64,000 nt of DNA. Source: Antedon mediterranea (Eukaryota; Animalia; Echinodermata). How positions within the stretch are numbered: the first letter of the stretch is position 1; each line of letters begins with the position of its first letter. The notes below the pieces were generated by a model. It was not told where the DNA came from, searched no databases, and saw nothing but the letters and a program-made list of their open reading frames with translations. Shown one piece after another: positions 8,439 through 53,500 of this stretch. The DNA lies in the NCBI RefSeq assembly GCF_964355755.1, contig NC_092670.1, positions 8,608,201 through 8,672,200 on the forward strand, in the 5' to 3' direction. Made by a program: the position numbers and the translations under genes.

Positions 8439-8519
8439 ATAATGGAGTCAAGAATACGTCATTATATGCTAAGAGAAGGAGTTAGGCAAGAAACTATTGA
8501 TGCCCTTCAAGACGAAAAA
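8439..8519 (+). CDS. Exon A, SAM-like part 1 (MESRIRHYMLREGVRQETIDALQDEK)
   Basis: Acceptor cttcacag, ATG at 8442, donor gttagt at 8520. Confidence 0.75.
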
Positions 8520-11500: not shown

Positions 11501-14500
11501 GCAATTATTTTGTCAAACTTGCCTACTACTACTAACTTTAAAAAATGTGGGACAATTGACTTACTGTGTATGAAATGCCAATTTCCTCTCACTGTTTAAG
11601 TTGATGTCACTTGGTTGGTTAAACCTTAGGTACATAATGTGAAAAGATCATCTTATAAGTCTTTAAATGGAGATTTACCCGAATACTGTACCATTCATAT
11701 TTGAAATTTGATAATGAAAATCATGAACATTTTACCAGAAATACAGTATTGTTTCATTTTATTTACTTTGCCTCAAAACAATATATAAAAATACAATACA
11801 TGGAAAAGAAATAAGAAAAAAAAAATAGAGACAGGATTCCTAGAAGAAATATCTTACTCTTTCTAATGATATTTAAAAAAAATTCCTGTTTGACCTTTGT
11901 TACATTTTTAGTCTTTCTTTGTTTATTCACCTTACTTTAATTATTACCATATATTACATTTCTTTTGGAGACTCAACTTAAAGGCTCCTTTTGGTTTATT
12001 TGAGTCACAAGACATAAAACAAAGTGAAGTTAGTTAAATAAGATATGTTTTTACGTTTTTTGTTATTTATTTGAAAAAAATATATAATTAAATGAATTTA
12101 TGAGGTGTATCTTTACTTCTTCGGTAGTTCACACCTAGAGCCCCTTTTTTGACATGCCAATTTTTTATCTACATTTCTGAAGTCTTCTTAAAAAAACAGG
12201 TCAATTTGAATTAGAGATACTGAACAGACTTGTACATCCAAATGCATTAACCACATCAAACAAAGTAATGTACAATACATTTTAACAAAAATAATGTAAA
12301 CCTTGAACATGTCTAATTCTTTTTTCCTGTCATGGAATTAAAGTATAGTGCACCCAATGTAATGACATAACATAGTATTGTATTTCATCTTTATTACATT
12401 ACAAAGTGAGAGAGATACATTTGCAAAATAAATAAAAACATACTGTTACTTTTGTATTATCATGGCAGATGTCTGTAGACTATAGTACTAAATTACAATT
12501 AAATCATAAGTTCAATTATATTATTATAGTAGGCCTTAATGATTATGATTTATTTCAGAATGGAAACACCCCACTACATCTATATCTTAGCATATTCACT
12601 ACAAAGTTTGGCTATCCTCAGATGAGAGGTGTTGAATTAGAGATACTGAACACTCTTGTACATCCAGATGCATTAACCACATCAAACAAAGTAATGTGTC
12701 ACGAAATTTTAACAAAAATAATGTAAACCTTGAACATGTCTAATTCTTTTTTCCTGTCATGGAATTAAAGTATATTGCACCCAATGTAATGACATAACAT
12801 AGTATTGTATTTCATCTTTATTACATTACAAAGAGAGAAAGATACATTTGCAAAATAAATAAAAACATACTGTTACTTTTGTATTATCATGGCAGATGTC
12901 TGTAGACTATAGTACTAAATTACAATTAAATCATAAGTTCAATTATATTATTATAGTAGGCCTTAATGATTATGATTTATTTCAGGATGGAAACACCCCA
13001 CTACATCTATATCTTAGCATATTCACTACAGAGTTTGGCTATCGTCGGATGAGGGATGTTGGATTAGAGATGAGGGGTGTTGAATTAGAGATACTGAACA
13101 CTCTTGTAAATCCAGATGCATTAACCACATCAAACCAAGTAATGTACAATACATTTTAACAAAAATAATGTAAACCTTGAACATGTCTAATTCTTTTTTC
13201 CTGTCATGGAATTAAAGTATAGTGCACCAATGTAATGACATAACATAGTATTGTATTTCATCTTTATTACATTACAAAGTGAGAAAGATACATTTGCAAA
13301 ATAAATAAAAACATACTGTTACTTTTGTATTATCATGGCAGATGTCTGTAGACTATAGTACTAAATTACAATTAAATCATAAGTTCAATTATATTATTAT
13401 AGTAGGCCTTAATGATTATGATTTATTTCAGGATGGAAACACCCCACTACATCTATATCTTAGCATATTCACTACAGAGTTTGGCTATCGTCGGATGAGG
13501 GATGTTGGATTAGAGATGAGGGGTGTTGAATTAGAGATACTGAACACTCTTGTAAATCCAGATGCATTAACCACATCAAACCAAGTAATGTACAATACAT
13601 TTTAACAAAAATAATGTAAACCTTGAACATGTCTAATTCTTTTTTCCTGTCATGGAATTAAAGTATAGTGCACCAATGTAATGACATAACATAGTATTGT
13701 ATTTCATCTTTATTACATTACAAAGTGAGAAAGATACATTTGCAAAATAAATAAAAACATACTGTTACTTTTGTATTATCATGGCAGATGTCTGTAGACT
13801 ATAGTACTAAATTACAATTAAATCATAAGTTCAATTATATTATTATAGTGGCCTTAATGATTATGATTTATTTCAGGATGGAAACACCCCACTACATCTA
13901 TATCTTAGCATATTCACTACAAAGTTTGGCTATCCTCAGATGAGGGGTGTTGAATTAGAGATACTGAACACTCTTGTACATCCAGATGCATTAACCACAT
14001 CAAACAAAGTAATGTACAATACATTTTAACAAAAATAATGTAAACCTTGACCTGTCTAATTCTTTTTTCCTGTCATGGAATTAAAGTATAGTGCACCAAT
14101 GTAATGACATAGCATAGTATTGTATTTCATCTTTATCATATTACAAAGCGGGAAAAATACTGTACATTTGCAAAATACAATAAAGAAATAAACATATAAC
14201 TGATACGTTAATTATTAATTGTAGATTTAATATGAATTGATGGTTTTTAAATAGATAATATTTATCATTGCAGATGTTTGTAGATCAGTACTAGCACTAG
14301 AGCCTTAGCAAAAAGCAAATTCAAAAGAGAAATGAAAACATACTATTTGTTTGTATAGTGATATTTATTTATTTTATAAGAGAATTATATTGTATATATT
14401 TGAGAGAAAGTGTATTTAAAAAAAAAAAAAAAATGTTTATGTATATTAATTTTATTTTAGACAGGTAGCCCTAATTTATTTATATAACTATTTATACTTC

Positions 14501-17500
14501 AATGTTTAGGGGCTGAACTCGATTAGTTTTAACTATTTTTTAGCCCTTCCCTTGATATAATTATTATTATTTGTATATTACAATGTTTATAATTTATATT
14601 TATGGGTAAAATAAAGAAAGAAAGAAAGAATCTTAAAGTAGCAACAGTAAATCAGTAGGCCTAATGAGTATAATTTATTTCAGTATGGAAACACCGCACT
14701 ACATCTATATCTTAGCTTATTCTCTACAAAGTTTGGCTATGATCTGATAAGGGGTGTTAATGAATTAGAGATACTGAACAGTCTTTTACATCCAGATGCA
14801 TTAACCACATCAAACAAAGTAATGTACAATACATTTTAACAAAAATAATGTAAACCTTGAACATGTCTAATTCTTTTTTCCTGTCATGGAATTAAAGTAT
14901 AGTGCACTCAATGTAATGACATGGCATACTAGTACAGTATTGTATTTCATCTTTATCATAATAATTAAAAAGCGGGAAACATACTGTACATTTGCAAAAT
15001 ACAATAAAGAAATAAACTAATGACTTATACAAATAAATTGTTGATTTAATATGAATTGATCATATATTGTAACTTAGGCCTTAATAATTATGATTCTTTG
15101 CAGGATAAAGACACACCACTACATCTATATCTAAGGAGTTCTGAAGTTAAATTAGAAATAGTAAACTGTCTCCTAACCAAAGGTGCATCAACCACATCTC
15201 CAAACAATGTATGTACATTTAATTTTACAAGTAGTTCATAAAGAGTAGGCCAATCCATCCCTTGATAATTATGATTGCAGAATGGATACACACCACTACA
15301 TCTATATCTAGGAAGGAGTTCTGAAGTTAAATTAGAGATAGTAAACTACCTCATAACCAATGGTGCATCAATCACAACTCCAAACAATGTATGTACATTT
15401 AATTTAATACAAGTAGTTTATAAACCATACAGCAATATTCCTAGGTATTAGACATTTCAAGTCTAAACAACACAGCCCCCACTGATAAGAAAGTGCTTAT
15501 TTTCAACAAGCTGGTGTAACACAAATAAAATCCCAAAAATTATGAAACATAGGGGAATCTATAGATCGATAATTATTGGAATGTATGATCAATAGAAATG
15601 TTTTGCATGCACCTGGCCTTCAAGGCTCCTTTTGGTTTATTTGAGTCACCAGACATAAATGTATCTACATTTCTAAAGTCTTCTTAAGACAAGGATCATG
15701 AGATTGAGCACATGCAGTTTAACACATTATATTGCACATTGTGGAAGATACATTTGTAAAATACAGAAACAAATGTAAAGGCCAATTGTATTCATCTAGA
15801 AACCAATCTATCCCTTGATAATTATGATTCTTTGCAGAATGGATACACACCACTACATCTATATCTAGGAAGGAGTTCTGAAGTTAAATTAGAGATAATA
15901 AACTGTCTCGTAACCAATGGTGCATCAATCACAACTCCAAACAATGTATGTACATTTAATTTTATAAATAGTTTATTAACGGTAAGCCAACATTTCTAAT
16001 TGCAATAATAGGTATTAGACATTTTAGATCAAAAAACACAGCTTAAATTAAAAATTGATTAAGTTATAAATTAAATTAATAAAATAAATTAAAAATAAAT
16101 TGATTTAATTAATTAAAATTGGAATACATATTTGATTGATTGATTGACTGAATTTCTTTATTAACCAGATTCGCATAATACATTCAATATAAAAACAATT
16201 AAATCATGAGAAACAATTAAATGTCTGTGAATTACCAATTTTGTTTTAGTAAGACTTTATAGCTAAACAATTTTTTTTAATCGTTGATAATCCAAAGTAA
16301 AAGCCAATTGTATTTCATCTAGTAGCCCTTGATAATTATGATTCTTTGCAGGATGGAGACACACCACTACATCTATATCTAAGAAGTCATGAAGTTAAAT
16401 TAGAGATAGTAAACTACCTCATAACCAATGGTGCATCAATCACAACTCCAAACAATGTATGTACATTTAATTTAATACAAGTAGTTTATAAACCATACGG
16501 CAATATTCCTAGGTATTAGACATTTCAAGTCTAAACAACACAGCCCCCACTGATAAGAAAGTGCTTATTTTCAACAAGCTGGTGTAACACAAATAAAATC
16601 CCAAAAATTATGAAACATAGAGGAATCTATAGATCGATGATTATTGGAATGTATGATCAATAGAAATGTTTTGCCCGCACCTGGCCTTCAAGGCTCCTTT
16701 TGGTTTATTTGAGTCACCAGACATAAATGTATCTACATTTCTAAAGTCTGAAGTCTTCTTAAAACAAGGATCACGACATTGAATAGAACATGCAATGTAA
16801 CGCATTATATTGCACATTGTGGAAGATACATTGCAAAATACAGAAACAAATGTAAAGGTGAATTGTATCTAGAAACCAATCTATCCCTTGATAATTATGA
16901 TTCTTTGCAGAATGGATACACACCACTACATCTATATCTAGGAAGGAGTTCTGAAGTTAAATTAGAGATAATAAACTGTCTCGTAACCAATGGTGCATCA
17001 ATCACAACTCCAAACAATGTATGTACATTTAATTTTATAAATAGTTTATTAACGGTAAGTCAACATTTTTAATTGCAATAATAGGTATTAGACATTTTAG
17101 ATAAAAAAAACACAGCTTAAATTAAAAATTGATTAAGTTATAAATTAAATTAATAAAATAAATTAAAACTAAATTGATTTAATTAATTAGAATTGGAATA
17201 CATATTTGATTGATTAATTGACTGAATTTTTTTATTAACCAGAGTCGCATAATACATTCAATATAAAAACAATTAAATCATGAGAAACAGTTAAATGTCT
17301 TTATCAGAATGCCCTGTGAATTACCAATTTTGTTTTAGTAAGACTTTATAGCTAAACAATTTTTTTAAATCGTTGATAATCCAAAGTAAAAGCCAATTGT
17401 ATTTCATCTAGTAGCCCTTGATAATTATGATTCTTTGCAGGATGGAGACACACCACTACATCTATATCTAAGAAGTGATGAAGTTAAATTAGAGATAGTA

Positions 17501-20500
17501 AACTACCTCATAACCAATGGTGCATCAATCACAACTCCAAACAATGTATATGTACATTTAATTTTACAAGTAGTTCATAAACAGTAGGCCAATAATCCTA
17601 GGTAGACATTTCAAGTCTAAACAACACAGCCCCCACTGATAAGAAGTGCTTATTTTCAACAAGCTGGTGTAACACAAATAAAATCCCAAAAATTATGAAA
17701 CATAGAGGAATCTATAGATCGATGATTATTGGAATGTATGATCAATAGAAATGTTTTGCCCGCACCTGGCCTTCAAGGCTCCTTTTGGTTTATTTGAGTC
17801 ACCAGACATAAATGTATCTACATTTCTAAAGTCTGAAGTCTTCTTAAAACAAGGATCACGACATTGAATAGAACATGCAATGTAACGCATTATATTGCAC
17901 ATTGTGGAAGATACATTGCAAAATACAGAAACAAATGTAAAGGTGAATTGTATCTAGAAACCAATCTATCCCTTGATAATTATGATTCTTTGCAGAATGG
18001 ATACACACCACTACATCTATATCTAGGAAGGAGTTCTGAAGTTAAATTAGAGATAATAAACTGTCTCGTAACCAATGGTGCATCAATCACAACTCCAAAC
18101 AATGTATGTACATTTAATTTTATAAATAGTTTATTAACGGTAAGCCAACATTTTTAATTGCAATAATAGGTATTAGACATTTTAGATAAAAAAACACAGC
18201 TTAAATTAAAAATTGATTAAGTTATAAATTAAATTAATAAAATAAATTAAAAATAAATTGATTTAATTAATTAGAATTGGAATACATATTTGATTGATTA
18301 ATTGACTGAATTTTTTTATTAACCAGAGTCGCATAATACATTCAATATAAAAACAATTAAATCATGAGAAACAGTTAAATGTCTTTATCAGAATGCCCTG
18401 TGAATTACCAATTTTGTTTTTAATAGTAAGACTTTATAGCTAAACAATTTTTTTAAATCGTTGATAATCCAAAGTAAAAGCCAATTGTATTTCATCTAGT
18501 AGCCCTTGATAATTATGATTCTTTGCAGGATGGAGACACACCACTACATCTATATCTAAGAAGTGATGAAGTTAAATTAGAGATAGTAAACTACCTCATA
18601 ACCAATGGTGCATCAATCACAACTCCAAACAATGTATGTACATTTAATTTTACAAGTAGTTCATAAACAGTAGGCCAATATTGAAACCAATTATATCAAT
18701 ATTGAAACCGTGAACTAGGCCTACTGCAATTAATTTGTTTTAGATATTCAACTAATCAATTATATTGATTAAAGGCATTTACTTTACGTGAACTACAAAA
18801 TGTTTTAGTAATTTAACTATTATTGAAGGCCTTTACTTTTACGTGAACTACAATGTGATTTTGTGATTCAACTGAATCGTGAACTAGGCCTACAATTTAT
18901 TTGTTTTATATATTCAACTATCAATTATAAAGGCCTTTTTTACGTGAAATACAATTTGTTTTAGTAATTTAACTAATTATTTATGCTATTTATTAATCAT
19001 TTTATCAAATTTAGGTCCGATTCAATGTTACTATAGGAGGCTAATTGAACTAATTATTTATGCTATTTATTAATCATTTTATCAAATTTAGGTGCGATAC
19101 AATGTTACTATATAGGAGGCCTGGTAGGCCTCGGAGGGAAACACCTTTACTGTTTATATTATCGATTATTTCTATTGCTTGCTCTATTTATAATTATAAA
19201 TGGTGTCTACTACGACCGATATATAAGTAGGCTACGAAAGTTGTTATTTGATCATTTTGTTCCAAAATTAACAAGATGCTGTTGTCATGATATATTGTGA
19301 TCGTTAAAGCCCCACTCACTGTCACCCACTTTGATAACTATGCTTTTGGTCTCTTGGTACGGTCATGTTAGAGACTGTTTCAGTAATTGATGACCCCTAT
19401 TAACGGTTTCCTCCTGTGTGTAACGTTCAGATAATATATATAATAATATAATATGTATATTATACGTATACTGTTCTTTACAATTATATTATTTGCATGA
19501 TTAATACCAATTGTTGTAAAGTTTTTACATCATTACAGGAGAATTAATGTACATTTTGTTTTACAAATAAATAAATCTATTGAGTAACTTTTCCAATTTT
19601 ACGTTCCTATAACGACCGATTGCTGTCAAGTTCAATTTCCAGAGGCGTTGGTCATGTTTTCGAGGACCATTCGGGTACACCCACTAGAGGGTGTGCGCGA
19701 GCGAAACGAGCGAACCCTCTAGTCAAAGTAATTATTTTGGTCAATATTGACAGGATTCCCAAAAAGTTAATCTAATTACTCTAGATTAACTAGTCTCCTA
19801 ATTGCACCGATTTAAAATATATGTAAAATATATATATACATTAAAAATGTGTAAAAATACAACTTTATACTATATTATATTACATACAGAATAATACAAT
19901 GATGATGATGATTTAGTTGCAAACCATTTTTAATAGAAAAATGTAATGCAGAAAACTATATAAGCATTCAATTAAAAGGATATGGCTTAAATATTTTAAA
20001 AAGTAAGAAGATAAGACTAGAGATACATTAACCACAAACAAAGTAATTTACTATAATAGTGCATCCAATGTAATGATATAACACAGTAATACATTATTAT
20101 CATTGCACATTGTGCAAGATATGCACAGTGTGCAAGATACATTTTGCAAAATAAAGAAAACAAACAAACTGTTATTTTAATTGATTTGATATGAATTTAT
20201 ATGGTATTTAAATTATTATTAGTGCAGATGTTTAGATCAGTATTAGAGCCTTTTTTAAATCTTAAAGAAGCAACCATTTTATATTATCTAGTTTTAAACC
20301 AGTAGGCATAAGATAATTATGATCTATATTTGAGTATAGTCCATCATACAGAGTTTAGCTTATCATCTGATAAAGTGTGGTATTAAATTAGAGAAACTGT
20401 CCAGTCTTGTTCATAAAGATGCATTAAAGGGGGGTTCCGGGTTTAAAATGAATAGTAAAAAATGTAAAATATATTTGTTTGTCTCTTGAACGGTAAAAGT

Positions 20501-23500
20501 TTCAATTTATATAAGCGCCCAGTGAAGCAGAACGAAGGCTGTGAAATGAGGCCAGATTGCAAGTGCAGCTACGGCGATATGACACTGTGTTTACAGAATA
20601 GGAAATTCGTGAAATGGTCAATGTTCCGACGACTCGTTATCATTAACCATATCAATTACTTTTGTGAAATTATACTTATCTAAAGTAATTTTAGTCGGTC
20701 TTCCCATTTATAAAGTCAATTTTCTATGAAAATTCATCAAAACAGTGAAAAATTAGATATGTTTGCACTTTACGTTTGCCGATTTTCGCACTGACTTAAA
20801 GAAAGCCTTCAAAATCAATGAAGCGTAACGTATGCATTCCTGCTGAGCGAGACGACGATACACGTGCTCTACCTGCCCATGCCTGGCATGTCACGTGATA
20901 AGCAGATACAGTACAATACCAAACTGGTCGGGTCGAGTATACCCCGTCTATAATCACAACATGAACGATGTACAGTATTTGGTTGAAGGTCGACTCGACC
21001 TACCGGAATGGTATAGATAATATAGCTCGAATGAGAGAGTTGGAATATTTGTTAACATAAGTATATTGCTAATTTTAACAAGCCTATAATACTTTATTAA
21101 AAGGCCTGGTAGTATCAATTCGCATATAGGGTCTATTACACTAGCTAGCTCAATTTTTAACTGGGCCGAATCGGCTAGGTCTCCTTCCTACTACCTGGTC
21201 TACTTGCTTGATGCAGTATCTGCTTTTTTGGAGAGTAAACTAGGCCTATTTTAGGCCTACTTTTAGACGATCGGGACACCATACGTGCGGACGTACCTTT
21301 TTTGCCTCAATATTTACAGCCGATTTTGTAGAATGTTTTAGGTTTAGATTGTTTAGGAGTTTGGTTGATAGGATAGGTTTGGAATCCACCGAGTTTTATT
21401 ATTATGGGCCAATCGTTTAGTAGGCTAGCTAGGCCCATGATGGGCCCCAATGTTTTAACGTAGCCATCGTGGCATGGAATCCCTAGTCAGAATGGCTCTC
21501 ACCCATGAAAACAAATGATTTAGGCTAGGCCTAGCCTAGTACGTGAAGCCGATAATACGATCTGTACTATTCGAGGTATAAAAATAGTATATAATTTAAG
21601 ACTCCGTAATCTTTACTAAATGTTGTATTTATGTCAAATAAATATATGCTACTACTGTTATTATTACACTTTAGGCCTAGCTTAGAAAATCTACAAAAAA
21701 TGTATTTCACAATGATCGGGTGGTTGTCGTTTGACAGGGGAGAGAGATTTGAAGTTAACAAACACAACGTACACTTTTAGATACTGATCACAGAATAGTA
21801 ATCACAACATTCAACTTAAAATGGCATCGCGTTAACAAACAAAACACTAACAAAAACACCAACTTATTTGCATGTGAAAAGCTAGTGACAAGCAAAGAAA
21901 CTAGGAATTTATACGTAGAAAAACTGAAAGAATGCATAGATGTTGTTGTGAAACCGGATCAGCCAACCGTTACATGGCAGGAATTGAAAAGCGTCGTGAA
22001 GGCAGCTGCAAAACATACAATAGGACCAAAACAAAAGGTCGGCTACAACAAAAGGACATACGATGACACAACCCAACGCCTATCAACGCAGCAAAAAGAA
22101 CTTAGACTACAAATAGCTAACTGCAAGTCGGAAATCGAACGTACATCATTAAAGCAAAAAAGAAACAAAATCATGCATGACATTCAAAAAAGAGTAATTG
22201 AAACACGCAACAAAGAACTTGATCAGAAAAGTTTGGATATCGACAAAGCGATAGGGGGCGCCCAAATGTTTAAAGCAGTGAAAGATCTTAGTAGAAAACC
22301 ATTCGAAAATCCAAAAGTGTTTGATGCTAACAAAAAGTTTATTGCCTCACCAAATGGAATAGCGAAAGTAATTGGCAATCACTTCAAAAATAAATTTTAC
22401 GACGGAAGCAAACGAAATATAGATTCATTTGAGGGAAATCCTAGGCCATTAAATAAAGAAATCAGTGAAGAGGAAGTAACCAAGAGTCTTAAACGCCTAA
22501 ACAACAGTCGAGCAACAGGTGAGGATGGTATCCCAGGAGAACTACTAAAATACGGTTCCCCTGTTCTAGCTCCAATGATTTCAGACATTTTAAATCAAAT
22601 ATTTACAAAACATGAATTCGTGGATATTAATAAAGGAACACTCATAGCACTACCAACACCGGGTAAGGAAAAGGGTCCAACTAAGAATTTACGACCTGTT
22701 ATTCTACTTAACACCATACGCAAGTGCCTATCGCTTATAACACTGGATAGAATTACATCGAAAGTAGACGCATTCTTACCACAAAGCCAAAGTGGGTTTC
22801 GCAAAGGCAGAAGCACAAGTGATATAGTTTTTACACATAGATGGCTTATAGCTAAAGCACAAAAAGAAAAAATAAATATTTACATAACCGGTATAGATAT
22901 GTCCAGCGCGTTTGACACAGTGGATAGAAACAAACTCCTCGACATACTCAAACATATTATAGACGAAGATGAACTTAGGATCGTTAGATTTCTGCTGAGT
23001 GAAACCGGACTAAATCTAAAAATAAAAGGTGCAAAAGAACAGCCAATATTCCTAACCAACATCGGCACCCCTCAAGGAGATAGCTTAAGCCCGGTCTTAT
23101 TCACTGTTTACCTTGAGTCTGCGCTACGAGGAATCAGAACAATTATCCAAACAGAAATACCTCAAGAGATATCATATGCTGATGATGTAGATTTTTTTAG
23201 TCTAAATAGCAAGCATAATGTAAACAAATTAGAACGCCATTTATCAACTTTCAACTTAAATGTAAATAAAGAAAAAACAGAACACACTATCGTAAGACGA
23301 GAAAAAGAGGACATACAAGAACAATGGAGAAACACGAAAAAAGTAGGATCGCTCCTTGGGGACAGACAAGACATAATTAGAAGAAAACAACTAGCGCGTG
23401 TAGCAATGACCAAACTAAACTCGATGTGGCTTCGAAAAGATAAAACCAAATTAAAAATACGTATCAAGCTGTACAACTCACTAGTTAAAAGTATATTACT

Positions 23501-26500
23501 CTACAACTCTGAAACATGGGGACTCACAAAAGAAGAAGCACATAAACTCGACACATTTCACAGACAGCAACTTCGCAAAATCATAGGTATCAGGTTCCCA
23601 GACAGGATATCGAACATAAATTACCGATTTCATTAGAAATAGTCGACGCAAGATGGAGACTATTGGGTCACATACTTAGACAAGACCCATGTACACCAGC
23701 CAACACAGCAATAAGCTATTATTTCAGCAACACTACCAATATAAAATTTCGATGAAGACCGAGAACCACCCTACCAATAACTCTCAGCAACGACCTACTC
23801 ACCCTTTATAAGCATAATACAGACATTAAGTATCCCGGGCAATTGAAAACCAAGAAAGACATGAAACAACTTAAAGAACTAGCCAATGAAAGATCAGACT
23901 GGAAGAAACTAGTAAAAGAGATTTACGGAGCAGCCCAAGCGGAAATGTCGGCAGACTTTTCAGCGGAAAGGCAGTAATAATATAATATATACGTACATGA
24001 CGTCGCGAGTTTGGAATCCACTGATGACGTGATTTTGTGAATATCTCATGAATATTAATGAGCTTCCCTAAGCTGCTGAAAAACAGACTTTCCATGAATT
24101 TACCCTAAAATGTATATGAAATTAATTTTTTTTAATTTCTCGTTATTACTTCTTCACTCTGACATGTCTATATTGTTATGATATTTTTTATTTAATAAAT
24201 AAACGATATTTAAAAGCAATTTTAAACCCAGAATCCCCCTTTAATCACATCAAAGTAATGTGCAATAAATGTTAACAAATATATTTTCCCCTTTAAACTT
24301 GCCTAATTCTTTTTCCCTATCATGCAATTAAAGTATAGTGCACCCAATGACATACATATTGTATTTCATATTTTAAATTAAGGATTTAATATGAATTGAT
24401 GGTTTTTAAATAAATAATCATCACCATTGCAGATGTTTGTAGATCAGTACTAGAGCCTTTTTTTAATCTTAAAGTTGCAACATGTCTATTTTATAGCATG
24501 TAATTTTCAACCAATAAGCCTTAATTATGATTTATTTCAGGATGGAAACACCCCAGTACATCTATATTTTAGCTTATTCAGGACAGGTGATCGTCGGTTG
24601 TGGGGTAATATAATTGAATTTGAGATACTGAACAGGCTTGTACATCCAGATTTTTTAACCACATCAAACAAAGTAATGTACAATACATTTTAACAAATAA
24701 TTTAAATTATTTTTATACTGTTTATGAAATTAAATTATAGTGTACCCAATGTAATGGCATAGCAAAGTATTGTATTTCATCTTTATCAAATTACAAAGTG
24801 GGAAAGATACATTTGGAAATAAAAGAAAAAACATACTGTTATTTTTGTATTATGAATTGTAGGTTTAACATTATCGATGGGGCTTTTTTACTATATATGT
24901 TACTACATAATTCATATTTTTAACATTATGGGGTTTTTTTAATCGCTAAAGTTTAAAAAAATGTGTTGAAATTGTATGTTCTTTCATAAGTATTTATCTT
25001 AGACAAACGCAAGTTATTAAAATCACTGATGTGGCTTGAAACTAATTTTTCTTTTGCATTACGGATGGTGTCACGAACTCCTCTCACGTATGTTTCCGAG
25101 CGGTTGAAAATACTTTAGGAACTCCCTTGTGACATAAAAGTATACACACAAAATCCACAAAGTTGTAAAAATAACTCAAAACAAAGCTTTAATTTCAATC
25201 AACTTCAACTTTTAACATTCCAGTAAGCACTTTAAACAACAGCTTCACAATAACTTTACAATATAATATCCAACCTCTAATCCAACAACCTTACAATAGT
25301 TTACATCCCTTTATATACAAGATGCTCCTCCTATCCTTCTAGATCATTCTTTATACTTCTCATTATGACATGATTACAGTTTCTATTAATAGCGCTTCTG
25401 GAATGTTCTTAATTGTTTTTATTAATTATACATGGTTTCTTAAATCAAAACACCTTACTGTATTCTAGAATGTTCATGTAAATACTATGTTACTCTATAT
25501 GTTAGGGAATGGTAATTTATTACACTCCCCCCTCTTTCTTGGAGTTTTGAGGGGCAAGTACACGGACGTGGCAAAATATAACATTTTCGTTCTAGAAACC
25601 CTGTTTAAATATGTGTATATAAATTAAAACTACATTACGTGAAAACCAAATTCTCATTACAAACAAAATGTAAGAAACAAGTAACTTATAAACATTAAAA
25701 CCTATTTTGTCTATTTGTAAAGTAACCCTTGCTTTAAGTTAATGGTTTTCGTGACAACCCGTCAGCATTACCATTAGAAATACCCCTTCTATGTACAACA
25801 GTAAAGCAATAAGGTTGTAAATCAAGACTCCATCTAGTTAGTCTTTTGTTTGTCTCTTTCATTTCAACCAACCATTTGAGTGGTTGATGGTCAGTAACGA
25901 TCTTAAATTTTTTCCTAGTAGATAATATCGGAGACTTTCGACAGCCCGTTTTATAGCTAAACACTCTTTCTCTATAGTTGCATAATTCTGTTCCCTTGGG
26001 AACATCTTACGACTAAGATACAATACTGGATGGTCAGTACCATCAGGACCTAGTTGACTAAGTACTGCACCTAACCCTCGATCTGACGCATCTGTTTGCA
26101 GTATAAACTCTGCATTAAAATCTGGGTTTCGTAACACAGGGTCTGAACATAACGCCTGTTTTAACTTTACAAGTGCATCTTCGCACTCAGGCGTCCATTT
26201 GATTTTATCTGGATGTTTTTTCCCCGTCAGATCAGTTAGAGGTGCTGCAATGTCAGCATAATTAGGAATAAACTTTCGGTAGTACCCTCTCAGCCCAAGA
26301 AAAGATTTAACATCCTTCTTAGTTTTAGGTTTTTCCCAATGTACTACCGCTTCTACCTTAGTCTTTTGAGGACGTATCATTCCCTCTCCAACTACATACC
26401 CTAAATAATGCACTTTACTATATGAAAAACTACATTTTGCAGGTTTGACTGTCAGATTAGCTTGTCTGAAAAATGTCCCTAAGATGATGGATATGACTTT

Positions 26501-29500
26501 CCCAGTCTGGACTAAATATTACCAGATCATACATATAAGCTGCTGCATAAGATTCTTTCTTACGCAACAGTTGATCCATCATTCTTTGAAACGTTGCAGG
26601 AGCCCCATGCAAGCCAAATGGTAAATACTTAAATTGGTACAAACCCATTGGTGTTGAAAAAACTGTATATGGTTTTGACCGTTCAGTTAAGGGAACCTGC
26701 CAGTAACCTTTACATAAATCTAACTTCGTTATAAATTTAGCAGGACCAACCCTGCCTATTATTTCATCTATTCGAGGCATTGGATATGCATCAAACTTGC
26801 TCAGACTATTCACTTTTTTGTAATTTACGCAAAAGCGAGCTGTACCGTCCGGCTTTGGTACCATTATATAAGGAGAGAACCAGGGACTGTGAGACTCCTC
26901 TATTACCCCAAGTTCCAACATAGATTCTATCTCTTCTTTTACTTTGCCTAACTTAGCCTGAGGAATTGGATAAGCTCTTAATCTAACTGGGTGTACCCCT
27001 AAGTTCATTTCAATATCATGCTTTATTACAGTAGTTTTCCCTGGCTTATCCTGTAACACTGAGTCAAATTCAGAAAACACCTCTGCTAAATCTGAAAGCT
27101 GAGATTCATCTAATCCTTCACCAGAATCTAAGGTTAAATTGGAACTAGAAACATTTGACCAAGAAATGTCCTTATGCTGACCCTCGTCTTGTCCAGTTAC
27201 ATCATTTATAGCCAGCATAACCTCCATAGTTCTACGATGAAATTGTTTTAAAAGATTTATGTGGTAGACTTGACTTTTTCCGTTTATCATTAGTTTCCAC
27301 CTCATAGTTTACTGGCATTAATTTCCTTAAAACCTTGTATGGACCTTGCCATTTTGCCTCTAATTCATCGTTACTAGATGGTAAGAGTAATAGGACTTCA
27401 TCACCTGGACTAAATTCTCTACAAACAGATTTCTTATCATATTTGTGTTTTTGCCTTATTTGGGATAGTTCAATGTTTTCCTGGACTAGATCTTTCATTG
27501 AAGTTAACCTATCTCTCATTTTAACAACGTGTGAAACCACACTTTGAGGACTTGTCACCGTGCCTGTCCACATTTCTTTCATTATATCAAGTGGACCTCG
27601 TACCTTCCAACCATACAATAATTCAAATGGGGAGAACCCAGTAGACTCCTGCGGTACCTCCCTATAAGCAAATAATAGGTACGGAAGCAATTTATCCCAT
27701 TCTCGGGGATCATCCTGAACAAATTTCCTTATCATAGGCTTGAGGGTGCCATTAAATCTTTCCACTAATCCATCGGTTTGTGGATGGTAGGGGGTGGTAG
27801 TCAAGCCCTTAATTCAGAGCCATATATATAAAGAGTTACGACATTGAAGATTAGAAGCTATGTTTGTGTCAAAGAATTCGCACGCTGAGGGCGTGCGCGT
27901 CTATTTTGTATAGCGTTTTCCTGTAGTTCATGCATTATTTTTAGATTTTTTTTGTCTATGAAATAACGCTTATATTCCGTTTTTATTTAGTAATTAATTT
28001 TATTAATTTTGTAAACTAACATATATATATTGTGTCTATAATAACAAAAGAATAAATGCTAGGGCCTACATGCAAGTCAGGATACATCAAAGCATGAACC
28101 AATACAAATTCACCCCTCTTTTTATACAGTGTATACTCTCCGTGTGTTTTTGATACAAACTTCATTTCATTTCATTTGTAATAATTTGCCTTTATTATTT
28201 TAATATTGTTCATACCCTATTTAATATATTAACAAATATATCCACGACACTTTCTTATTTTATTTAGTCATCAAAGCATGCATTATGAATTGAAAATATT
28301 ACATAATTGTTATTAATAGGACGTAGTTATGGGATGTTTCGTTCCAAAATCAATAAATCGAACTTTATAATGTACTAGCGCACGCGCGCGCAATATTCTT
28401 TGCCGCAAGTACTTCTGTACGCCGTGCACATCGATATTTCACCGTAAAATGTGCAATTACATGTTTTTAAATATAATAAAAAGTTTGAAGTATTTTCTTG
28501 CTCCTATACTTTACATGAATTAACGGAGACAAGTTTGACACAAATTGATCTGCATATCAGGTGGCTATAATCCAATGTCGTAACTCTTTATATATGGCTC
28601 TGCCTTAATTGAAAGTAACTTATAAATCTGACTCAACAACTTAGAGGTAAAGTTTGAACCTTGATCGGTTAAAATTTCCGTTGGTAAATTTCCCTGGAAA
28701 ATAATTTAATCAACTCATCCGCTATCTTTGGAGCTTCAATACTTCTCAGCGGGATAGCCTCAGTATATCGAGTTGCATAATCACATATAACTGTCGGAGA
28801 CTGAAATTATATTACTATTATTTTGTTACTTTTATTGAGAATGATTCTATTCAATTTATTCATATTTTACACTTAAATAATTATTTTGATTGGAACTACT
28901 TTATTATTATAGAATGTTTGCCTTGGTGATTTTGTACGTATGCGCATTAATATTTATATAGCGTCGTTGTTATAAGGTTGTGGGGAGAGCAATTACCTCG
29001 TGGGAGTTGAGATAAAAGCTCGAGGAGGATAAGCTGTGTTTAAGAAGAGTTTCAAGATTGTTAGTTTGTTATTTTTTGCGAAAAAAACCACTTTAATTAT
29101 GGTTGGTGTTACTGACAATTGCAGACTGCAGTAAATTGAGCTGATTTGAGAGCAACTTGTTTTTAATTGTAACTATATTAAGCTGTGTTAGTGTTACAGG
29201 AGGGCATTGCAGGTATTGTGATTGTTTAATAACATTACTATTTTGAGGACTTGCTATGATATAATTTCCCGAGTTAAAGATGTGTTATTGGCTGAATGCT
29301 ATAATGATGTAAACTGATGGAGATAGATAACTTTGAGAAGTTATTATTTGAGTTGTATTCTTTATGATAAATTAAGAGGTATAAGTTGAAGAGTTTACCT
29401 TATATCATTGTAATGTTATTTTTCTCTGATTGGTATTACAGGGGTGATTGTGTGTTTTAGTCTGTTTAATGATTCGATTTATGGTCCAGTTATAATAAAC

Positions 29501-38500: not shown

Positions 38501-41500
38501 ACAATTAACTGGTGAAAAAATGGGCATGATGTGATTTATAATTAAATTGTATGTTAGATTTTGTGTATTTTTGCAATTAACCAACATAATTTTTTTTTTA
38601 CACGTTTCCATGGTAACAAAAACACATTTTCCATAAATTTTTAAAAATTGTGTGTTTATAGTATACAATTAACTAGTGAAAAAATGGGCATAATGTGATT
38701 TATAATTAAAGATTTGTATGTATTTTTGCGATTAAAGGACATCTTTTTAATAATTAATCATTTACTATAATATCTGATGAAAGAACAATGAATGAGCGGC
38801 GTTTTTTGTAAGAAATAGTTCTTGTTTAATTTTGCAATCATTCATTCAGTTATCCAACATACCCTTGGTGTCAATTTCTATTCAGATTTAGCCATCAAGA
38901 GTCACTGTATTAAAAATCTACTTCTTTCAATATTTACTTTTTGCATCTATAAATCGTGTTTAGTAATAAGAAAAGAAAAAGAAACAAAATCAGGAATCAA
39001 AAATAATTTGGAGATTATTTTACTATGAATTAAAGCATTTATTAACAAATGAATTTATGAATAATTTACATAAGGCTCAGAAGAAATGGACGAATAACCT
39101 AAAAGATAAATTATTAAAACTATCTAAAGACTTGATGTTAATAATTTAATTATTTTATCGATTCCTTTTTCTTTCTTACCTTATCATAATGGACACAAAT
39201 CCTGCATATCAACGTAAAATCTGTTTATAAGCATCACATACAGTATACTTTTTTAAGATGACAATAGTTCAAATACATGTAGCATGTCAATATAATCTGT
39301 ATGTATTGGTATTTGTTTAACATATCTTTCTATATTTGCATTATTTTATATCGTATACGTGTCAATTTAATCTATAGGTATGTGTATTTGTTCAATATAT
39401 ATACTTCTATACTACTATAATATGTTATACCGTAAATACAAATTGTAAGTAGTAGTTGTACTAAGATGACATCGGGTATGAAGCGTCTCACATACACACA
39501 GAGCCAAAATTGCATCTTGGACTTGCACCGTGTATGGACTCTCCCCTTACGGTTTCCATTAAATATACCATTTCATGCTATCATTCTAAATAACTAACTT
39601 TCAACCTACTGCATTCCTCTTTTTTTCATACATCCATCTTATCTTGGTGAAAAGGGAGGATACTACATTTTCCTCCCCTGAGTTTATAGCCTCTCTACTC
39701 GAACACAAACTCGAACACAAATAAGATCACAAATAATAATAATCATGTATTTTACCGCCATTTTTCATTTCTACATTTTAATTAACATCGTATCTAAAAT
39801 TTTAAATGAGAAAATATATGGGTCATTCCATCTCAGTTCACCCAAAAAAAATGGAATTTTAAACCCTACCTCTTCCAATTTTGATGAAATTTGGTATATG
39901 GGTGATTCATAGCAATTAAAGCCAAAATTTCAAATTTTAACTTTATCGGACCAACGGTTTTCAAGTTATCGCAATTTCAATTTTCGGTTTTTACGCAAAA
40001 AAGCGCGCGGCCGCCACGTTTCAAAGAGCTGTATCTCTGGAACTATAGGTTCGATTTTAAAAACAAAGGTATTTTTGTAAAGGGGAGACCATAAGGAACC
40101 TAAATATACTAATTGTGTGTGTTTTATGTTAATTTTAAGTTGAATAAAACTTTGACATATATTTTGACCTTGAAATTGACCCCGTGGAACACGCCCGATT
40201 TGTTGGTGACTATCACGAAAAATGTAGCCCTACGTGTCAACTACAACATATAAAAAAATTGGAGGGGTTTTTTTCTTTGTTTCCATGAAATTACAATTTG
40301 AAGTTGACATACCTCTTCCTTTTAGTGTATTTTTGGTGTTGTTATACTTATACACAGTGTGAACACTAACTGTTAAGGTGTCTTATTGTTACGCTTTCTC
40401 ATCAGGCCCACTTAAACAGTAGATATATTTTGATATGAGAAATACTGGGTAACTCAAATACTTTTCAAATCAATTTTGACACATAGTTTAGTGTCCTTAC
40501 TATGTTATTATGCACATTAACATATGCATAATAAGTGATTGCAGAGAACATACAACAGTCACTGTATATGCCTTTTTAAAGGTTGCCATCCCCTATATAA
40601 AAACAAAACTACCAACCATGAAAAAAGTTCATTATTCACAGATGGATGTGGCGGCCAATACAAAAACAAATATAACTTTATTAACCTTTGCCACCACCAG
40701 GAAGATTTTGGTTTAGACGCCGAGTGGAATTTTTTCGCTACATCACATGGCAAGAGTGCGTTTGATGGCATAGGTGGAACAGTTAAGAGGCTTGTCACTA
40801 AGAGAAGCTTACAGCGTTTGACTGAATGTCATATTATCACATCTCTCAGTATGTTCGACTACTGTGTAATTTTTTATTTTTATTTTATGTCTTTAGGCAA
40901 TGTGGCCAAGGATTATCAATGGTGAATTAATCACTGTCCTATCAGATAGGTGGTAATCCCCCTGATACAGGGGCTATTGTGTGAACCAGTTCACCGGGGT
41001 AACCCCCTACTCTTTTTCGAATAATGAACTGGGTTCTTTAAAGTACACACATGTTATAACTGTGTACACTGGACCTACAGTTTATAGTCCTTATCCGAGA
41101 AGACTTGTTCCACCACCAGAACGGAGCGAGTCGGCCTCGAACCCTTGCCGATGTTGTTGTTGGCTCTTTTAGGTACGGTAAACGGCGCCCCTGCCTTAAC
41201 CGCTCGGCCATATGACTCGCTCATATGGACATTCCAGGCATCAACTTTTTTCATGTGGGAATAGATGAGGTATCTACTGTGGAAAAAGAAATAAAGCCGA
41301 GATTCAACCTCGCCCAGACCATCAAGGGTACATTACAATATCATCGCTTTGTTCCCGTTTCTCTGGCACAGATGCAGGTCTACAAACTTAGTACCCAGAT
41401 AAACCCTCCGGATGTGGTAGTGATTCAAGAATCTTTCAGTGATGAAAATGAAATTGTTGCTGATACACAACCCACCATTATTAGAATTCAGAATTTTGTG

Positions 41501-44500
41501 TGCTGTAGTTATGATGGTGTCCCATGGATTGGTTTGGTGGTGGATGTCTCACTCTCAGAAGAGTTTGGGGATTTTCAAATTAAATTTATGCATCCTCATG
41601 GGTCAGCGAAAACCTTTTATTGGCCGTCCAAAGAAGACTGTTGTTGGATTCCTGAATCAAATGTACATTGTATTATAGCCTCTCCGTTTATAAAATCCTC
41701 TTCGACTAGGAATTAAAGTATTTCCCAAAATGATCGCCACAACATTTCTAAATACTGTTTGAATTGTCCAGATGACAAGGAGTAAAGGCCAGACATAGAC
41801 AATTGTAACATTATAATAATATTTAGTTTGTAAATAAAATTAATTTTGGAATACATCAAATTGACATTGAAGTAATGCATGGACAGACACCAAAAATACA
41901 CTAAAAGGAAGAGGTATGTCAACTTCAAATTGTAATTTCATGGAAACAAAGAAAAAAACCCCTCCAATTTTTTTATATGTTGTAGTTGACACGTAGGGCT
42001 ACATTTTTCATGATAGTCACCAACAAAACGGGCGTGTTCCACGGGGGAAATTTCAAGGTCAAAATACATGTCAAAGTTTTATTCAACTTAAAATTAACAT
42101 AAAACACACACAATTAGTATATTTAGATTCCTTATGGTCTCCCCTTTACAAAAATACCTTTGCTTTTAAAATCGAACCTATAGTTCCCGAGATACAGCTC
42201 TTTGAAACGTGGCGGACGCGCCCTTTTTTGCGTAAAAACCGAAAATTGAAATTGCGATATCTTGAAAACCGTTGGTCCGATAAAGTTAAAATTTGAAATT
42301 TTGGCTTTAATTGCTATGAATTACCCATATACCAACTTTCATCAAAATTGGAAGAGGTAGGGTTTAACTCATTGGGTGATCTGAGATGGAATGACCCATA
42401 TGGTTAATATAATGAATTCTGGCATCTTATTATGTAAATATACCGGTATTTTAACTACTCTAAACACTTACTTTTAATTGTCACAAATGTACTTATATGT
42501 ATATAATATATTCATCAATGAGAATTTAAATAAACGTGAGAAGAACTCACACAAGACAAAAAAAAAAAAATCTACTTTGTGAAACATTTTCTATTGTCGT
42601 ACATCCTAATTCTATCATAAACCTACTCTTTTTGTAATCTATTATTATTATATGAAGATTATTATATGAATTTTTTAATTTCCTTCTTTTTTAAAACAAT
42701 TATCATTATTCGGACCTAAGGGCCCCATAATTGTCAAATAGTGTATTTTGCTGAATATTATTTTTTTATTTAAAGATGTATTGTCCCTTTGACTAATTCC
42801 AAAAAAATTTTTTTTTTAATTTTGAAAAAAAGTGGGTCATTTTGAAGTATCATAATAGTTATAAAAAAATTAGTCGAAAAAAAAAAAAAAATTAACCGAA
42901 ATACAGATGTTTTTTTGTTCAAAAAAAAACTTTGACTTCCAGTCAAAGTTTTCAATCAAAACATATCTCATAATGCAACGCACTTATTTGGCTACTCTGT
43001 ATGCATAATCATAAAACTTCCTTGCGATCTGTGTGAAAACACCTTCTCAACCGTGAGAAGTTGTAAACAATCCTAATTAGCATAATGCATACTCATGGTT
43101 TGAAATCTGTGTTTACTTTCGCTTGCGACGATTTCCTAGATGAAATGTAATCTAATTAATTTACCTGTTAATTACGTAAAATTGTTGTTTTTGGCTCGAA
43201 TTTTCGACTTAAAGTGAATAACTTTAATATTACTTTGATATGGCCAATTTAAATTTAGAATATTTTTTTTTTCATTTTTTGTGTTTCAAGGGACACTACA
43301 TCTTTAAGTTGTTAACAAATTATCATCATCATATTGCAAATGTTTGTAGGTCAGTACTCACACCTTTTTAAAATCTTAAAGCAAAATTCCAATTTATAGC
43401 TAGTTGTAAACCAGTAGACTTATTATGATTTCTTGCAGGATGGAAATACCCCACTACATCAATATCTGAGCATGTTCAATACAGAGTTTGCTGATCATCT
43501 AAAGGAGGATGTTATTAAATTAGAGATACTAAATATACTTGTACATCAAGAGGCTTTAACCACAACAAACAAAGTAATTTACATCAAATGCAGATGATTT
43601 AAATTAAAACCTTTTTAAAATCAATATTTTGACTCGGAGTCTCCTTATAAGGCACTGCCTGAGTTTCAATCAGCCTTTGCAACAAATAAAAGTTGAGCTT
43701 AACTGAAAAGTGTGAAATATATAACAATATAAGAAATAAATTTTAATAGATCTTGTGGTGTCAACTAAATATTTCTGTGCACAATTAAATAAAATTTGAG
43801 GGCGTGTTGGACATTGGACTACTAATCGTGAGATCGAGGTTCGAATCCAACTCCCGCCGCATTGCTTGTATCCGTAGGCAAGATACTTTACTTACGTTTG
43901 CCTCTCTCCACCCAGGTATATAAAATGGGTACCCGGGTTAGATCAAGACACAACTTTGCGCTGATTACTAGTTGCATTATGGGAGTATGTTTCAATACGT
44001 GTTTGACAACAAAAAAATGACTGGGGTAATAATGTTTTAGCGCTTAGAGGTTTCACATTTTGCTACCTATATAAATTCAGGATATTATTATTATTAAAAT
44101 AATATTGTTGAAAGAACAGTTGATCCAAAAATAAAGATATTATAAATTGTAAATAGGAGAAGAGTCTTGATCAAGTAAATATTTATCCATTTTGTTAACA
44201 CTGGTGATTCGTTCCTTTTTAAGGGCATTATTATGAGAGAAATAGTAGATAGTAATTTTTAACATGATGTAAATTTAGAGAATTTGAGGTCTTGTTACAA
44301 AATTTACATCTGTTTGATTGAAGTTATAGTAGGTGGAACGGCTTTTTTTTAGGGAATAACATTGATTAGTTTTATTTGTATAAAATGGTACTTTTCATTT
44401 ACTTTCCTATTTTGCAATTTTAATTAAATCACTGTTTATCCTTTGTTCAAAGATCTGTACAATAATACATGTATCATGTATGATCATCAGCATATAAGCT

Positions 44501-50500: not shown

Positions 50501-53500
50501 TAAATATGGATTTTGAATCAACCAATGATAGGGACGTAATTTTAGTTTCAAAAGAGTAGGCCTATGTATAAAACGAGTAAGACTTTAGTTGAAACTGCTG
50601 AGATAACACTTTTTGCAGGTTAAAATTTAATTTTGACAGGGTTATTATCAAATTTTTGTGTTAACATTTATAAAGTCTAGGCCTCTACCTATGCCTCATA
50701 TGAGCGGACTGCAAAATAAAACACCAATATATACCACCATCAGGTACTATAGGCAGCCAGAGAGCATGGTCAGAGTAGGAATTAATATAATTCATATTAA
50801 CTCTGCATATTAATAAGATCAATTGTATGATTGTTTGTGGAGAAGCAGCCTCAATCAAGCAAGACAAGTTGTACTCTTCTAGCTAGGGGAAACATCATCA
50901 AATGTTTTACTAAACTACCTACTGTAGGCCCAGAATCTTTCATCATCACATCATTTCACAACAAACAAGTTGGAGTTTGTGTACCCAGACGTACATGTTG
51001 GGCGTTCACGTTGTCAAAATGCATACACATCATCTTAGGTGTTGAATCTCTGAAATTTCTAAGCATGTATAATAAAATATTTCCAAGTAAGTAGTCAATC
51101 GCATGTGGCTGAACCTGGTTAACTGGATAATTGTAGAAACCATAAATAATTGAATGTGTTTTTCTAGATAATACTGTGTTTCGAGCTAAAATATTATAGG
51201 TATACTATTCTTTGACCATTTTTTTGTTTCTGTCTTGAAACCCAACTACTGTTTGTAGATCAGTACTAGAGCCATTTTGTAAATGCTAAAGTAGCGACAT
51301 ACCAATGTTATATCATCTAGTTGTAAACCATTATAAATAGATTATTATGATTTCTTGCAGGATGGAAACACTCCACTTCATCTTTATATGAGCATATTCC
51401 ATAAAGGGTTTTACTATTATCCAAGGGAGCGTGGTATTGAATTAGAGATACTGAACAGACTTGTGCATCAAGATGCATTAGCCACATCAAACAAAGTAAT
51501 GTACAATAAATCACAATAAAACACAATATCAAAAAATGATAGTAGATAAATTTTAGATAATGGCAGTCAGTAAATTCTACTACAAATACAATGTATGTAT
51601 GTATGTATAATATATATATATATAATGCATCTGTCAAGGGGCGTTTATTCGAGAGGCCGTTTATTCAAAATGATGTTCTATGGGGACGTTATTCGAGAGG
51701 GCGTTTATTTTAAGTAAGGCGTTTATTCTAAGTAAGGCGTTTATTCAAATGAATACGCTAACATAGTATTCCATTATTATCATTATTATTGCAAATTGTA
51801 AAATATACATTTGCAAAATAAATAAAAATGTAAAATTACTGATGTTTTCACTTTTAGTACTAGATCTGTACTAGAACCATTTTGTAAATATTAAAGTATC
51901 AACATGCCGATTTTATATCATCTAGTTGTAAACAATCATGTCTTGATGATTATGATTTATTTCAGGATGGAAACACCCCACTTCATCTTTATCTGAGCAT
52001 ATTCAATACAAAGTTTGGCTATTATCTAATGGAGCATGATCAATTTGAATTAGAGATACTGAACAGACTTGTACATCAAAATGCATTAACCACATCAAAC
52101 AAAGTAATGTACAATAAATGTTAAGAAATTTAAACCTTAAACCTGTCTATTTTAGTACATCAATGGAGGAAATAAATATATATAGATATTTCCTCTATAT
52201 GGTACATCCAATGTAATGGATGAAGATATACTATAGAAAGCATATTTTATTTTGAATTGTAGGTTTAATATGTATGAATTTATACTATTTTAATAGTAAT
52301 CATTGCAGCTGTTTCTGCAGTAAAATCATTACTAGAGCCATTCTATTATTTATTATTTTATTTATTTATTTACTTTAATTATTTAATTTATAGATATTTA
52401 TTTTAGAACAGACTTGACAGTGGTATATTTTTTTTTAATATATTATTAGTTTGATTTTGGTTTAGATAGCAAAATCAATTTATGTCTTAACTTGTTTATA
52501 GAAAGGAAAGACGCCAGTGTGTATTTTAAAAGATAATGATCAGATGGACCTAGAAGTAAAACACACGATTTTGAAGTTATTTGACAGTAAGTTAATGTTT
52601 TTAAAATAATTTAACCCCCTGAATGTCAACCTGTAGTTCTAAATTAAAAACAAGTTTCGTACTATTTAATTTGACTGTACAAAAAGTAAAGTACAAAAGG
52701 TAAAAGGTTTGGGAATACACCATTTCCTGCTGTTTTGATATTAGTAAACCTAAACCTGTTTACCAGAAGGTGGCAAACGAGACATATGAAAATCAATCTA
52801 AAACAAGAGCGATATCAAAACTACTGACACTATGCTTTCAATGTCAGAAAGCATTCGACATTATATAATAAAATAATACAAACTAAAGTCAACATTTTTT
52901 AATCTTCTGTTTAACTGGATATTGAGAAAATTCGGATTATGCCCTTTGCATACCTTATTTCTAGTAGTGTACATTCTTTGTGCACATGAAATTTGTGAGT
53001 ACACAAAACTATTGTTTTGGCGTCCCTGACACAAGCTTTTGCTTTTTTGGTGACGCCACCATTTTGGAAATAAATGTTGATTTTGATTGATTGTAATTGC
53101 TTCATGTCCCATCCATAGGATGACACAGTGAGAATAAGTATCTTGCGTGGATATAACGAATATTGCACAAACAGGTTTCGAATACATTCCCATTGCATAC
53201 AAGTCTGCTTCTTTACTTTGATGCCATACTTACAATCTAATTATTTGCGTCCAATAAACTTGAACATCATTTACTGGATATTTATCCACATACACATATC
53301 ACTTTTATTTGATTTCTGTGATCACTGAATTGTATTTTCAATGTTTTGAACAAAATCCTCTACTTGATAAGGCAGAAATTGAAATTCTTTTGATTTTAAG
53401 ATGTTTATTAATGCATTTTATTGAAATACAAAATAAAGAAAATGTACCTTGCATTTAAATGTGTTTATTATTGTTAGCTCAACAGTCTAAAATGGATCAA

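Follow-up and report, generated by a model that had tools for sequence, protein, structure and literature searches.

What diversifies the long ankyrin repeats of a crinoid gene, and what are they for? The question is raised by a stretch of 64,000 nucleotides (nt) of Antedon mediterranea (GCF_964355755.1, contig NC_092670.1, positions 8,608,201 to 8,672,200 of the forward strand), hereafter the window, in whose numbering all coordinates are given. One gene in this window carries 12 exons (type A), each coding for a single ankyrin repeat that holds a variable insert between helix 1 and helix 2. These exons are open modules of whole codons, and the insert accumulates amino-acid changes at roughly three to four times the rate of silent ones. 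Positive selection on the insert is the likely cause, although the sample is small, and the insert may be the ligand-contacting part of an intracellular immune sensor.

Type A exons

By six-frame scanning and BLAST, 12 intact type A exons were located on the + strand of the window, from 12559-12690 through 51966-52103, interspersed with remnants and with eight exons of a second kind (type B). Lengths are in amino acids (aa).

12206..12264, + strand, type A remnant, 3' half (six-frame scan/BLAST)
12559..12690, + strand, type A exon A1, 44 aa
12986..13138, + strand, type A exon A2, 51 aa, with a 21-nt internal duplication
13432..13584, + strand, type A exon A3, identical to A2
13877..14008, + strand, type A exon A4, 44 aa
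14684..14818, + strand, type A exon A5, 45 aa
15104..18633, + strand, 8 type B exons, phase 0-0, 35-36 aa, starting at 15104, 15281, 15838, 16352, 16911, 17441, 17996 and 18529
20300..24254, + strand, decayed type A exon split by the inserted element 20428-24240
24541..24672, + strand, type A exon A6, 44 aa
43439..43573, + strand, type A exon A7, 45 aa
44688..44822, + strand, type A exon A8, 45 aa
45163..45297, + strand, type A exon A9, 45 aa
45559..45693, + strand, type A exon A10, 45 aa
51361..51495, + strand, type A exon A11, 45 aa
51966..52103, + strand, type A exon A12, 46 aa

All 20 intact repeat exons (12 type A, 8 type B) are bounded by AG at the 5' side and GT at the 3' side, contain whole codons in phase 0-0, and code for one ankyrin repeat each (20/20). 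From A1 to A12 the type A exons have 44, 51, 51, 44, 45, 44, 45, 45, 45, 45, 45 and 46 codons, with no stops, and the layout is always the same: a head of 13 residues, then a 12-19-residue insert placed between helix 1 and helix 2, and a tail of 19 residues. Neither type has the canonical length of about 33 aa (type A, 44-51 aa; type B, 35-36 aa with a short link between the helices). Type B repeats, both at 15104-18633 and in the relative P0001 described below, vary mainly at this short link, by one-codon insertions or deletions (indels) and substitutions.

When the 11 distinct type A exons were aligned, 14 of the 32 framework columns were invariant and 8 nearly so, against zero of the insert columns. 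There are 10 distinct inserts across the 12 exons (A2 and A3 are identical exons, and A1 and A4 have the same insert), and these are exactly the ten quoted in the initial annotation of this stretch, whose 12 stop-free exons with AG/GT borders and whole codons were found where it had placed them. It had also described the insert as enriched in Tyr, Phe, Trp and Arg, and indeed these make up 31% of 128 insert residues vs 8.8% of 320 framework residues (10 exons), with a single occurrence of Trp. The extra length does lie between the helices, as proposed there, except that the 51-aa form (A2/A3) originated by a 21-nt tandem duplication that reaches into the start of helix 2. Other length changes are a 6-nt deletion within the insert of A6, which has several framework changes as well, and a compensated +1/-1 frameshift between the inserts of A10 and A11. 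Part of the loop change is due to such indels, one duplication and one compensated frameshift; the frame is kept in 12/12 intact exons.

Positive selection on the insert

The selection analysis used 10 of the 12 type A exons (A3 and A4 were excluded as duplicates, and one copy of the 7-codon duplication of A2 was removed) and codon-model code written by ourselves, with the site tests M1a-M2a, M7-M8 and M8a-M8 plus partition fits. The proportion of nonsynonymous differences (pN) was 0.41-0.42 in the insert, where that of synonymous differences (pS) was 0.16-0.18; the corresponding framework values were 0.094 and 0.19. In the comparison of M1a with M2a, the likelihood ratio test statistic (LRT) was 21.2 (p 2.5e-5), with 25% of sites at a nonsynonymous to synonymous rate ratio (omega) of 4.1. 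Posterior probabilities above 0.5 were obtained at 11 sites, of which 10 are insert columns (14, 16, 18 and 20-26) and one is framework column 34. The three site tests were significant (p 3e-6 to 4e-4) in all five variants of the analysis with insert columns, which differed in tree, model, alignment and column set, while framework columns alone gave no significant site test.

Partition fits gave an omega of 3.2-3.8 for the insert, with a shared silent rate, and of 0.54-0.65 for the framework, whose omega spans 0.54-0.78 over all fits. The framework is only moderately constrained, and its description as near-invariant was too strong. The silent rate of the insert was 0.67-1.09x that of the framework, and a neutral insert evolving at its own rate was rejected in 6/6 fits (p 3e-4 to 0.04). 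With slipped codons masked the site test still gave p 0.014 and the own-rate partition test p 0.004, and allowing multi-nucleotide changes altered the signal little. Dropping A9 and A10 left p values of 0.003 (site) and 0.04 (own rate).

Comparison with the introns points the same way. Over the 6 pairs formed by A1, A2, A5 and A6, which have well-aligned downstream introns, insert divergence was 0.11-0.48 vs 0.02-0.12 in the intron, the pairs being non-independent. Between A3 and A4, 5 amino acids are replaced, 3 of them in the insert, with zero silent changes and with 0/309 aligned sites differing in their upstream introns. Loop divergence exceeded that of the intron in 35 of all 45 pairs, a comparison that we discarded as weak, the distance being similar with shuffled introns (control 0.30). 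The diversifying selection postulated in the initial annotation is thus supported by the checks that it had suggested: site models are significant with the insert columns, the loop ratio is not about 1 or lower and its silent rate is not raised, and the loop diverges more than the intron where the latter aligns well.

Relatives and other copies

A profile search for longer proteins matched a single one among 7992 scored candidates, XP_071943401.1 of A. mediterranea itself (P0001), which resembles the window gene in the C-cap (89% identity), the TRADD-N-like exon (56%) and the last exon (84%). In its RefSeq model, both the order of the repeats and their inserts differ: it has 13 full repeats in the order BAABBBABBABBA vs AAAAABBBBBBBBAAAAAAA in the window, and the inserts of its five type A repeats match none of the window's, one having lost most of the insert. 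P0001 was also the only protein found among 362 candidates in a search with the DED-like region. A representative protein search gave 7 weak matches, all generic ankyrins or chance except an Ank-Roc-COR-DED protein of A. mediterranea (P0005), whose 36-38-aa repeats vary at the link between helix 1 and helix 2. The type A profile had no significant match among PDB sequences. Repeat spacings of 42-55 aa are a minority in the other ankyrin proteins compared, vs a mode of 33-34 aa, and long inserts at this same site are not unique, as they occur in unrelated ankyrin proteins (P0006, P0014, P0046 and others).

Other copies were found among the contigs of run X1, alongside window-identical ones. For exon A8, all 17 differences fall in codons 16-27, that is, in the insert, among the matches listed (best 40 of 63). 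Three variants of X1 were read by hand: two agree with inserts found in P0001 (repeats 10 and 13), and the third with neither gene. Two further insert variants came from run X5. The depth of window-identical contigs in X1 was 25-33 and that of the variants 57-63; depth does not equal copy number, and the lower value gives a weak hint of a haplotype-specific array in the window.

Predicted fold

The fold was modelled on residues 1-542 of the relative P0001, using an alignment with 27 other ankyrin proteins (28 rows). The model had a predicted local distance difference test score (pLDDT) of 87.5 and a predicted template modelling score (pTM) of 0.83, its Foldseek matches were DARPins (ankyrin repeat proteins made by design) and ankyrin-B, and both the TPLH motif and the stacked helix-turn-helix solenoid of ankyrin repeat proteins are present. 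The four long inserts lie between helix 1 and helix 2 with a pLDDT of 52-66; among these four repeats, the insert is all coil in one, partly lengthens the helices in two, and the remaining repeat is poorly modelled. The prediction is a solenoid of ankyrin repeats in which the inserts sit outside the core, at the edge of the concave face.

By the numbering of PMC8415598, as given in the excerpt available, the insert comes after position 13 and before position 14, where partner contacts are enriched, and concave positions 1-3, 8, 11, 12, 32 and 33 are normally among the most variable. In type A repeats these concave positions are nearly fixed, as is the beta-turn, and the insert is variable; therefore, variability is shifted from the usual face to the insert. 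Column 34, the one framework column with a selection signal, is located on the convex face.

Gene model

Joining phase-compatible exons gave a 30-exon model from 8442 to 60107 (4218 nt, 1405 aa, a single stop at the end). The model opens with a small N-terminal domain and an N-cap, continues with the repeats, a C-cap and two linkers, and closes with a TRADD-N-like exon followed by a DED-like one. The first four exons were placed in the gene by phase fit only, the model of P0001 beginning at the ankyrins. Besides the repeats, the exons are as follows.

8442..8519, + strand, putative first coding exon, with ATG and GT donor, phase 0; no Pfam family
9331..9462, + strand, putative exon 2, AG/GT, phase 0-0; no convincing Pfam or PDB match
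9812..9904, + strand, putative linker exon, AG/GT, phase 0-0
10563..10606, + strand, putative short exon, AG/GT, phase 0-2
10727..10823, + strand, N-cap ankyrin exon, phase 2-0; resembles the start of P0005 with a score reached by 0/2000 shuffles
52502..52586, + strand, C-cap ankyrin exon, phase 0-1; 89% identity to P0001 513-539
53478..53606, + strand, Ser/Thr-rich linker exon 1, phase 1-1
56892..57038, + strand, Ser/Thr-rich linker exon 2, phase 1-1
57387..57773, + strand, TRADD-N-like domain exon
59584..60107, + strand, last exon, DED-like region and stop codon

The first two exons code for what we take, by eye, to be a small SAM-like domain, a label unsupported by Pfam and PDB sequence searches. 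The region with these two exons (8353-9529) has a 93% identical duplicate upstream (3573-4712), which may serve as an alternative 5' end or be an abandoned one, and two tandem copies of a 1.5-kilobase element (75% identical) lie between both at 5167-8229.

In Pfam searches, P0001 matched the Ank family with an expectation value (E) of 1e-44, single type A exons with E 0.02-0.17, and the two type B exons tested with E 6e-6 and 6e-4. Exon 57387..57773 is likely a TRADD-N-like domain, considering that its top ESM Atlas matches (0.94) are TRADD-like_N clusters (recognition 2674). The last exon is labelled DED-like because it is homologous to the C-terminus of P0005 (an alignment of about 155 aa, score 80, reached by 0/2000 shuffles), which in turn matches Pfam DED at E 7e-6, below the family cut-off; plain BLASTP of this exon against the whole of P0005 gave only E 0.14. 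No internal repeat was detected inside it. Pfam found no Roc-COR, NACHT or NB-ARC NTPase domain in the 30-exon model nor in P0001.

Contigs of run X5, which is only guessed to be RNA and also covers intron letters, have ends at several predicted boundaries. One begins exactly at 59584, the acceptor of the last exon, with 43 unplaced letters ahead and 40 differences; two related contigs begin exactly at 44688, the acceptor of A8; and one loose end consists of the final 24 nt of a type B exon abutting the exon start at 45559. Such ends suggest that members of the family are spliced at the predicted boundaries.

Exon turnover and mobile elements

Exon-plus-intron units have been duplicated and lost in this gene. 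Exons A1-A4 form a 446-base-pair (bp) tandem array (4.5 copies, 94% matches), and the type B exons a repeated two-exon unit of about 1.08 kilobases. The half exon at 12206 and the exon split by a transposable element show that there has been exon loss besides gain. The element at 20428-24240, presumably Kolobok-like, carries a duplicated TTAA target and terminal inverted repeats that open with AGGGGG, and nested within it is an open reading frame (ORF) of 625 aa for a reverse transcriptase (RT) of the long interspersed nuclear element (LINE) type (21759-23636).

Several other elements are found along the window. Broken ORFs of a Gypsy-like retrotransposon (gag, protease, RT, RNase H and integrase by eye) occupy 25734-31821 on the - strand, flanked by 456-bp direct repeats at 25069-25524 and 32156-32603. 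An array of 21- and 54-bp tandem repeats with several open frames is located at 34558-35138, and inverted repeats of about 520 bp (95%) at 39816-42401 flank broken transposase-like ORFs (40539-41716). The intron separating the linker exons contains a LINE-type reverse transcriptase in two ORFs (53748-55937), with about 8x single-copy depth in X1.

Interpretation

The explanation that we favor, at somewhat better than even chances, is that type A exons are phase-0 modules of one repeat each, whose positively selected insert likely forms the crest with which an intracellular immune sensor contacts its ligand. The insert, a candidate recognition loop or paratope on the ankyrin solenoid, would bind variable foreign molecules, and binding would be relayed through the TRADD-N-like domain, acting as a switch, to the DED-like region as output, which could recruit adaptors or caspases that carry a DED. 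In the germline, unequal crossing-over of whole exon units would generate new specificities, and the insert would be further diversified by point changes, in-frame indels and compensated frameshifts. We infer immunity, ligand binding and signaling from the architecture, because it resembles that of the TRADD-N, DED and ankyrin proteins of marine invertebrates proposed as invader sensors in the available part of PMC8195603. A bolder version, an intracellular antibody-like system in which an in-frame bank of exons with selected inserts resembling complementarity-determining regions is spliced and shuffled into a repertoire of sensors with death-effector output, and in which the crest between helices 1 and 2 is a paratope used by no known ankyrin binder, seems improbable to us.

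The likeliest alternative, to which we give somewhat less than one chance in five, is positive selection for another reason: the insert might escape or bait a pathogen antagonist, or serve self/non-self recognition between individuals, rather than be a paratope. An omega above 1 fits binding or escape equally well, and the nearly fixed concave positions (PMC8415598, Table 1, in the excerpt available) would suit a groove occupied by an unchanging host partner and flanked by a variable shield. The location of column 34 on the convex face also fits. However, Tyr, Phe and Arg abound in the insert, a composition that suits binding better than shielding, and repeat number and order vary too, as in proposed sensors.

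We regard as unlikely that a local hotspot of mutation and slippage acts on an insert that is simply tolerated and free of constraint, with gene conversion homogenizing the framework and no selection for diversity. The indels, the 21-nt duplication and the compensated frameshift are what a hotspot would leave, and the framework omega is high. Moreover, a fast neutral loop (about 2.9x the rate) made the site test nominally significant in 10/28 simulations. Yet the observed site LRT was attained in only 0/28 simulations of neutral inserts at the same rate, 0/28 recombined and 2/28 at the fast rate, and the observed partition LRT in 0/28, 1/28 and 0/28, respectively. The silent rate of the insert is not raised, a neutral insert at its own rate was rejected in every fit, A3 and A4 differ by amino-acid changes exclusively with identical aligned upstream introns, and all intact exons remain in frame.

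Less likely still is a cassette bank, where subsets of exons are used by skipping or mutually exclusive splicing, or are silent reservoirs, the 1405-aa product being one of many or never made: the phase 0-0 exons with near-identical splice sites, the interspersed decayed and half exons and the alternative splicing of brown-algal ROCO genes of like build (excerpt of PMC11378527) agree with it, but no exon-skipping joint among window exons appeared among the X5 matches listed (a weak test with short contigs), the RefSeq model of P0001 strings its repeats together, and phase-0 symmetry follows from exon duplication alone.

Several points weigh against the sensor with a selected insert. The selection data are 10 short exons of a single gene, and the 3' half of the insert is ambiguous in alignment. 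In the six-exon subset (A6, A9, A10 and A11 dropped) significance is lost (site p 0.07, own-rate p 0.22), as the hotspot explanation would have it, and even with the full set the own-rate test gives only p 0.04 under one model. The 10/28 significant simulations of a fast neutral loop count here too, and hotspot rate and recombination were simulated separately. For distant pairs, the intron comparison is at the noise floor of the aligner (the shuffled control of 0.30). The modelled protein is the relative P0001 and not the window product, and the low confidence at the inserts is partly lack of data, because the alignment is gapped over them. A Pfam search of the TRADD-N-like exon gave no match, and the last exon had no Pfam match, no usable ESM Atlas match and no significant PDB sequence match. 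Lastly, no transcript of the window's own exons is among the X5 matches listed.

Comparison with known systems

Crinoid immunity is almost unstudied. We found no account of this gene or its insert in the literature searched (mostly without subscription papers and without supplements), no such gene in titles or abstracts on crinoid ankyrin immunity, and nothing on ankyrins of the Antedon genome. Among better-known systems, the TRADD-N/DED invertebrate proteins of PMC8195603 share with this gene a constant part with TRADD-N-like and DED-like regions, the ankyrins and a sessile or slow marine animal as host. The passages available of that paper place Death-like and TRADD-N domains N-terminal to the ankyrins, the reverse of the order here, and describe neither exon-modular repeats nor a hypervariable insert.

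DARPins and LoopDARPins also add a loop and variable residues to an ankyrin framework that stays constant, but they are engineered libraries, and DARPins vary the concave face (PMC9611651 and PMC8401532, in part). The analogy with a DARPin library drawn in the initial annotation holds for the constant framework with a variable loop, and is otherwise loose, this being a germline array in one gene and a few relatives. In the LoopDARPin design, the loop reportedly replaces the beta-turn between repeats, at the opposite repeat end from the present insert, which lies between the helices.

Fungal NLRs with ANK, TPR or WD repeats have, like this gene, near-identical repeat frameworks with few positively selected positions, and vary in repeat number through unequal crossing-over (excerpts of PMC4986451 and PMC13449251). 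Their selected ANK sites, in the same excerpts, are in the concave inner helix and the beta-hairpin, whereas the concave positions of type A repeats hardly vary. The accessible part of PMC13449251 defines full ANK repeats as 33-36 aa, in proteins with a NACHT domain, in contrast to 44-51 aa here, each repeat an exon. The NACHT-ankyrin family of Tuber melanosporum, as cited in the excerpt of PMC4986451, is likewise an ankyrin sensor diversified via its exon structure, although by alternatively spliced, codon-sized microexons instead of genomic changes in whole-repeat exons. The insert site between the helices would therefore be a natural variable site of ankyrins distinct from the concave face of DARPins and fungal ANK NLRs, and a candidate new scaffold position for binder design.

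The brown-algal genes of the ROCO or NB-ARC-TPR type, proposed as immune receptors, are like this gene in that each repeat has its own exon, exons are shuffled, introns hold decayed exons and the repeats show diversifying selection. The symmetric repeat exons that go with shuffling, birth and loss are found here (20/20 in phase 0-0, with remnants and a different order in P0001), and so is positive selection on them, albeit non-significant in the six-exon subset. The differences are that the repeats here are ankyrins with a length-variable insert, in an animal and without Roc-COR or NB-ARC, and that alternative splicing has been reported in brown-algal ROCO genes (PMC11378527, in the part available), while the present array is known from genomic exons. 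If our interpretation is true, repeat-per-exon sensors under positive selection would be present in a deuterostome as well as in brown algae and fungi, in an ankyrin-based form without an NTPase switch. The crinoid Ank-Roc-COR-DED protein P0005, with its related repeats, provides a link to the ROCO type, and whether ROCO genes of crinoids are built like those of brown algae could be read from its exon structure.

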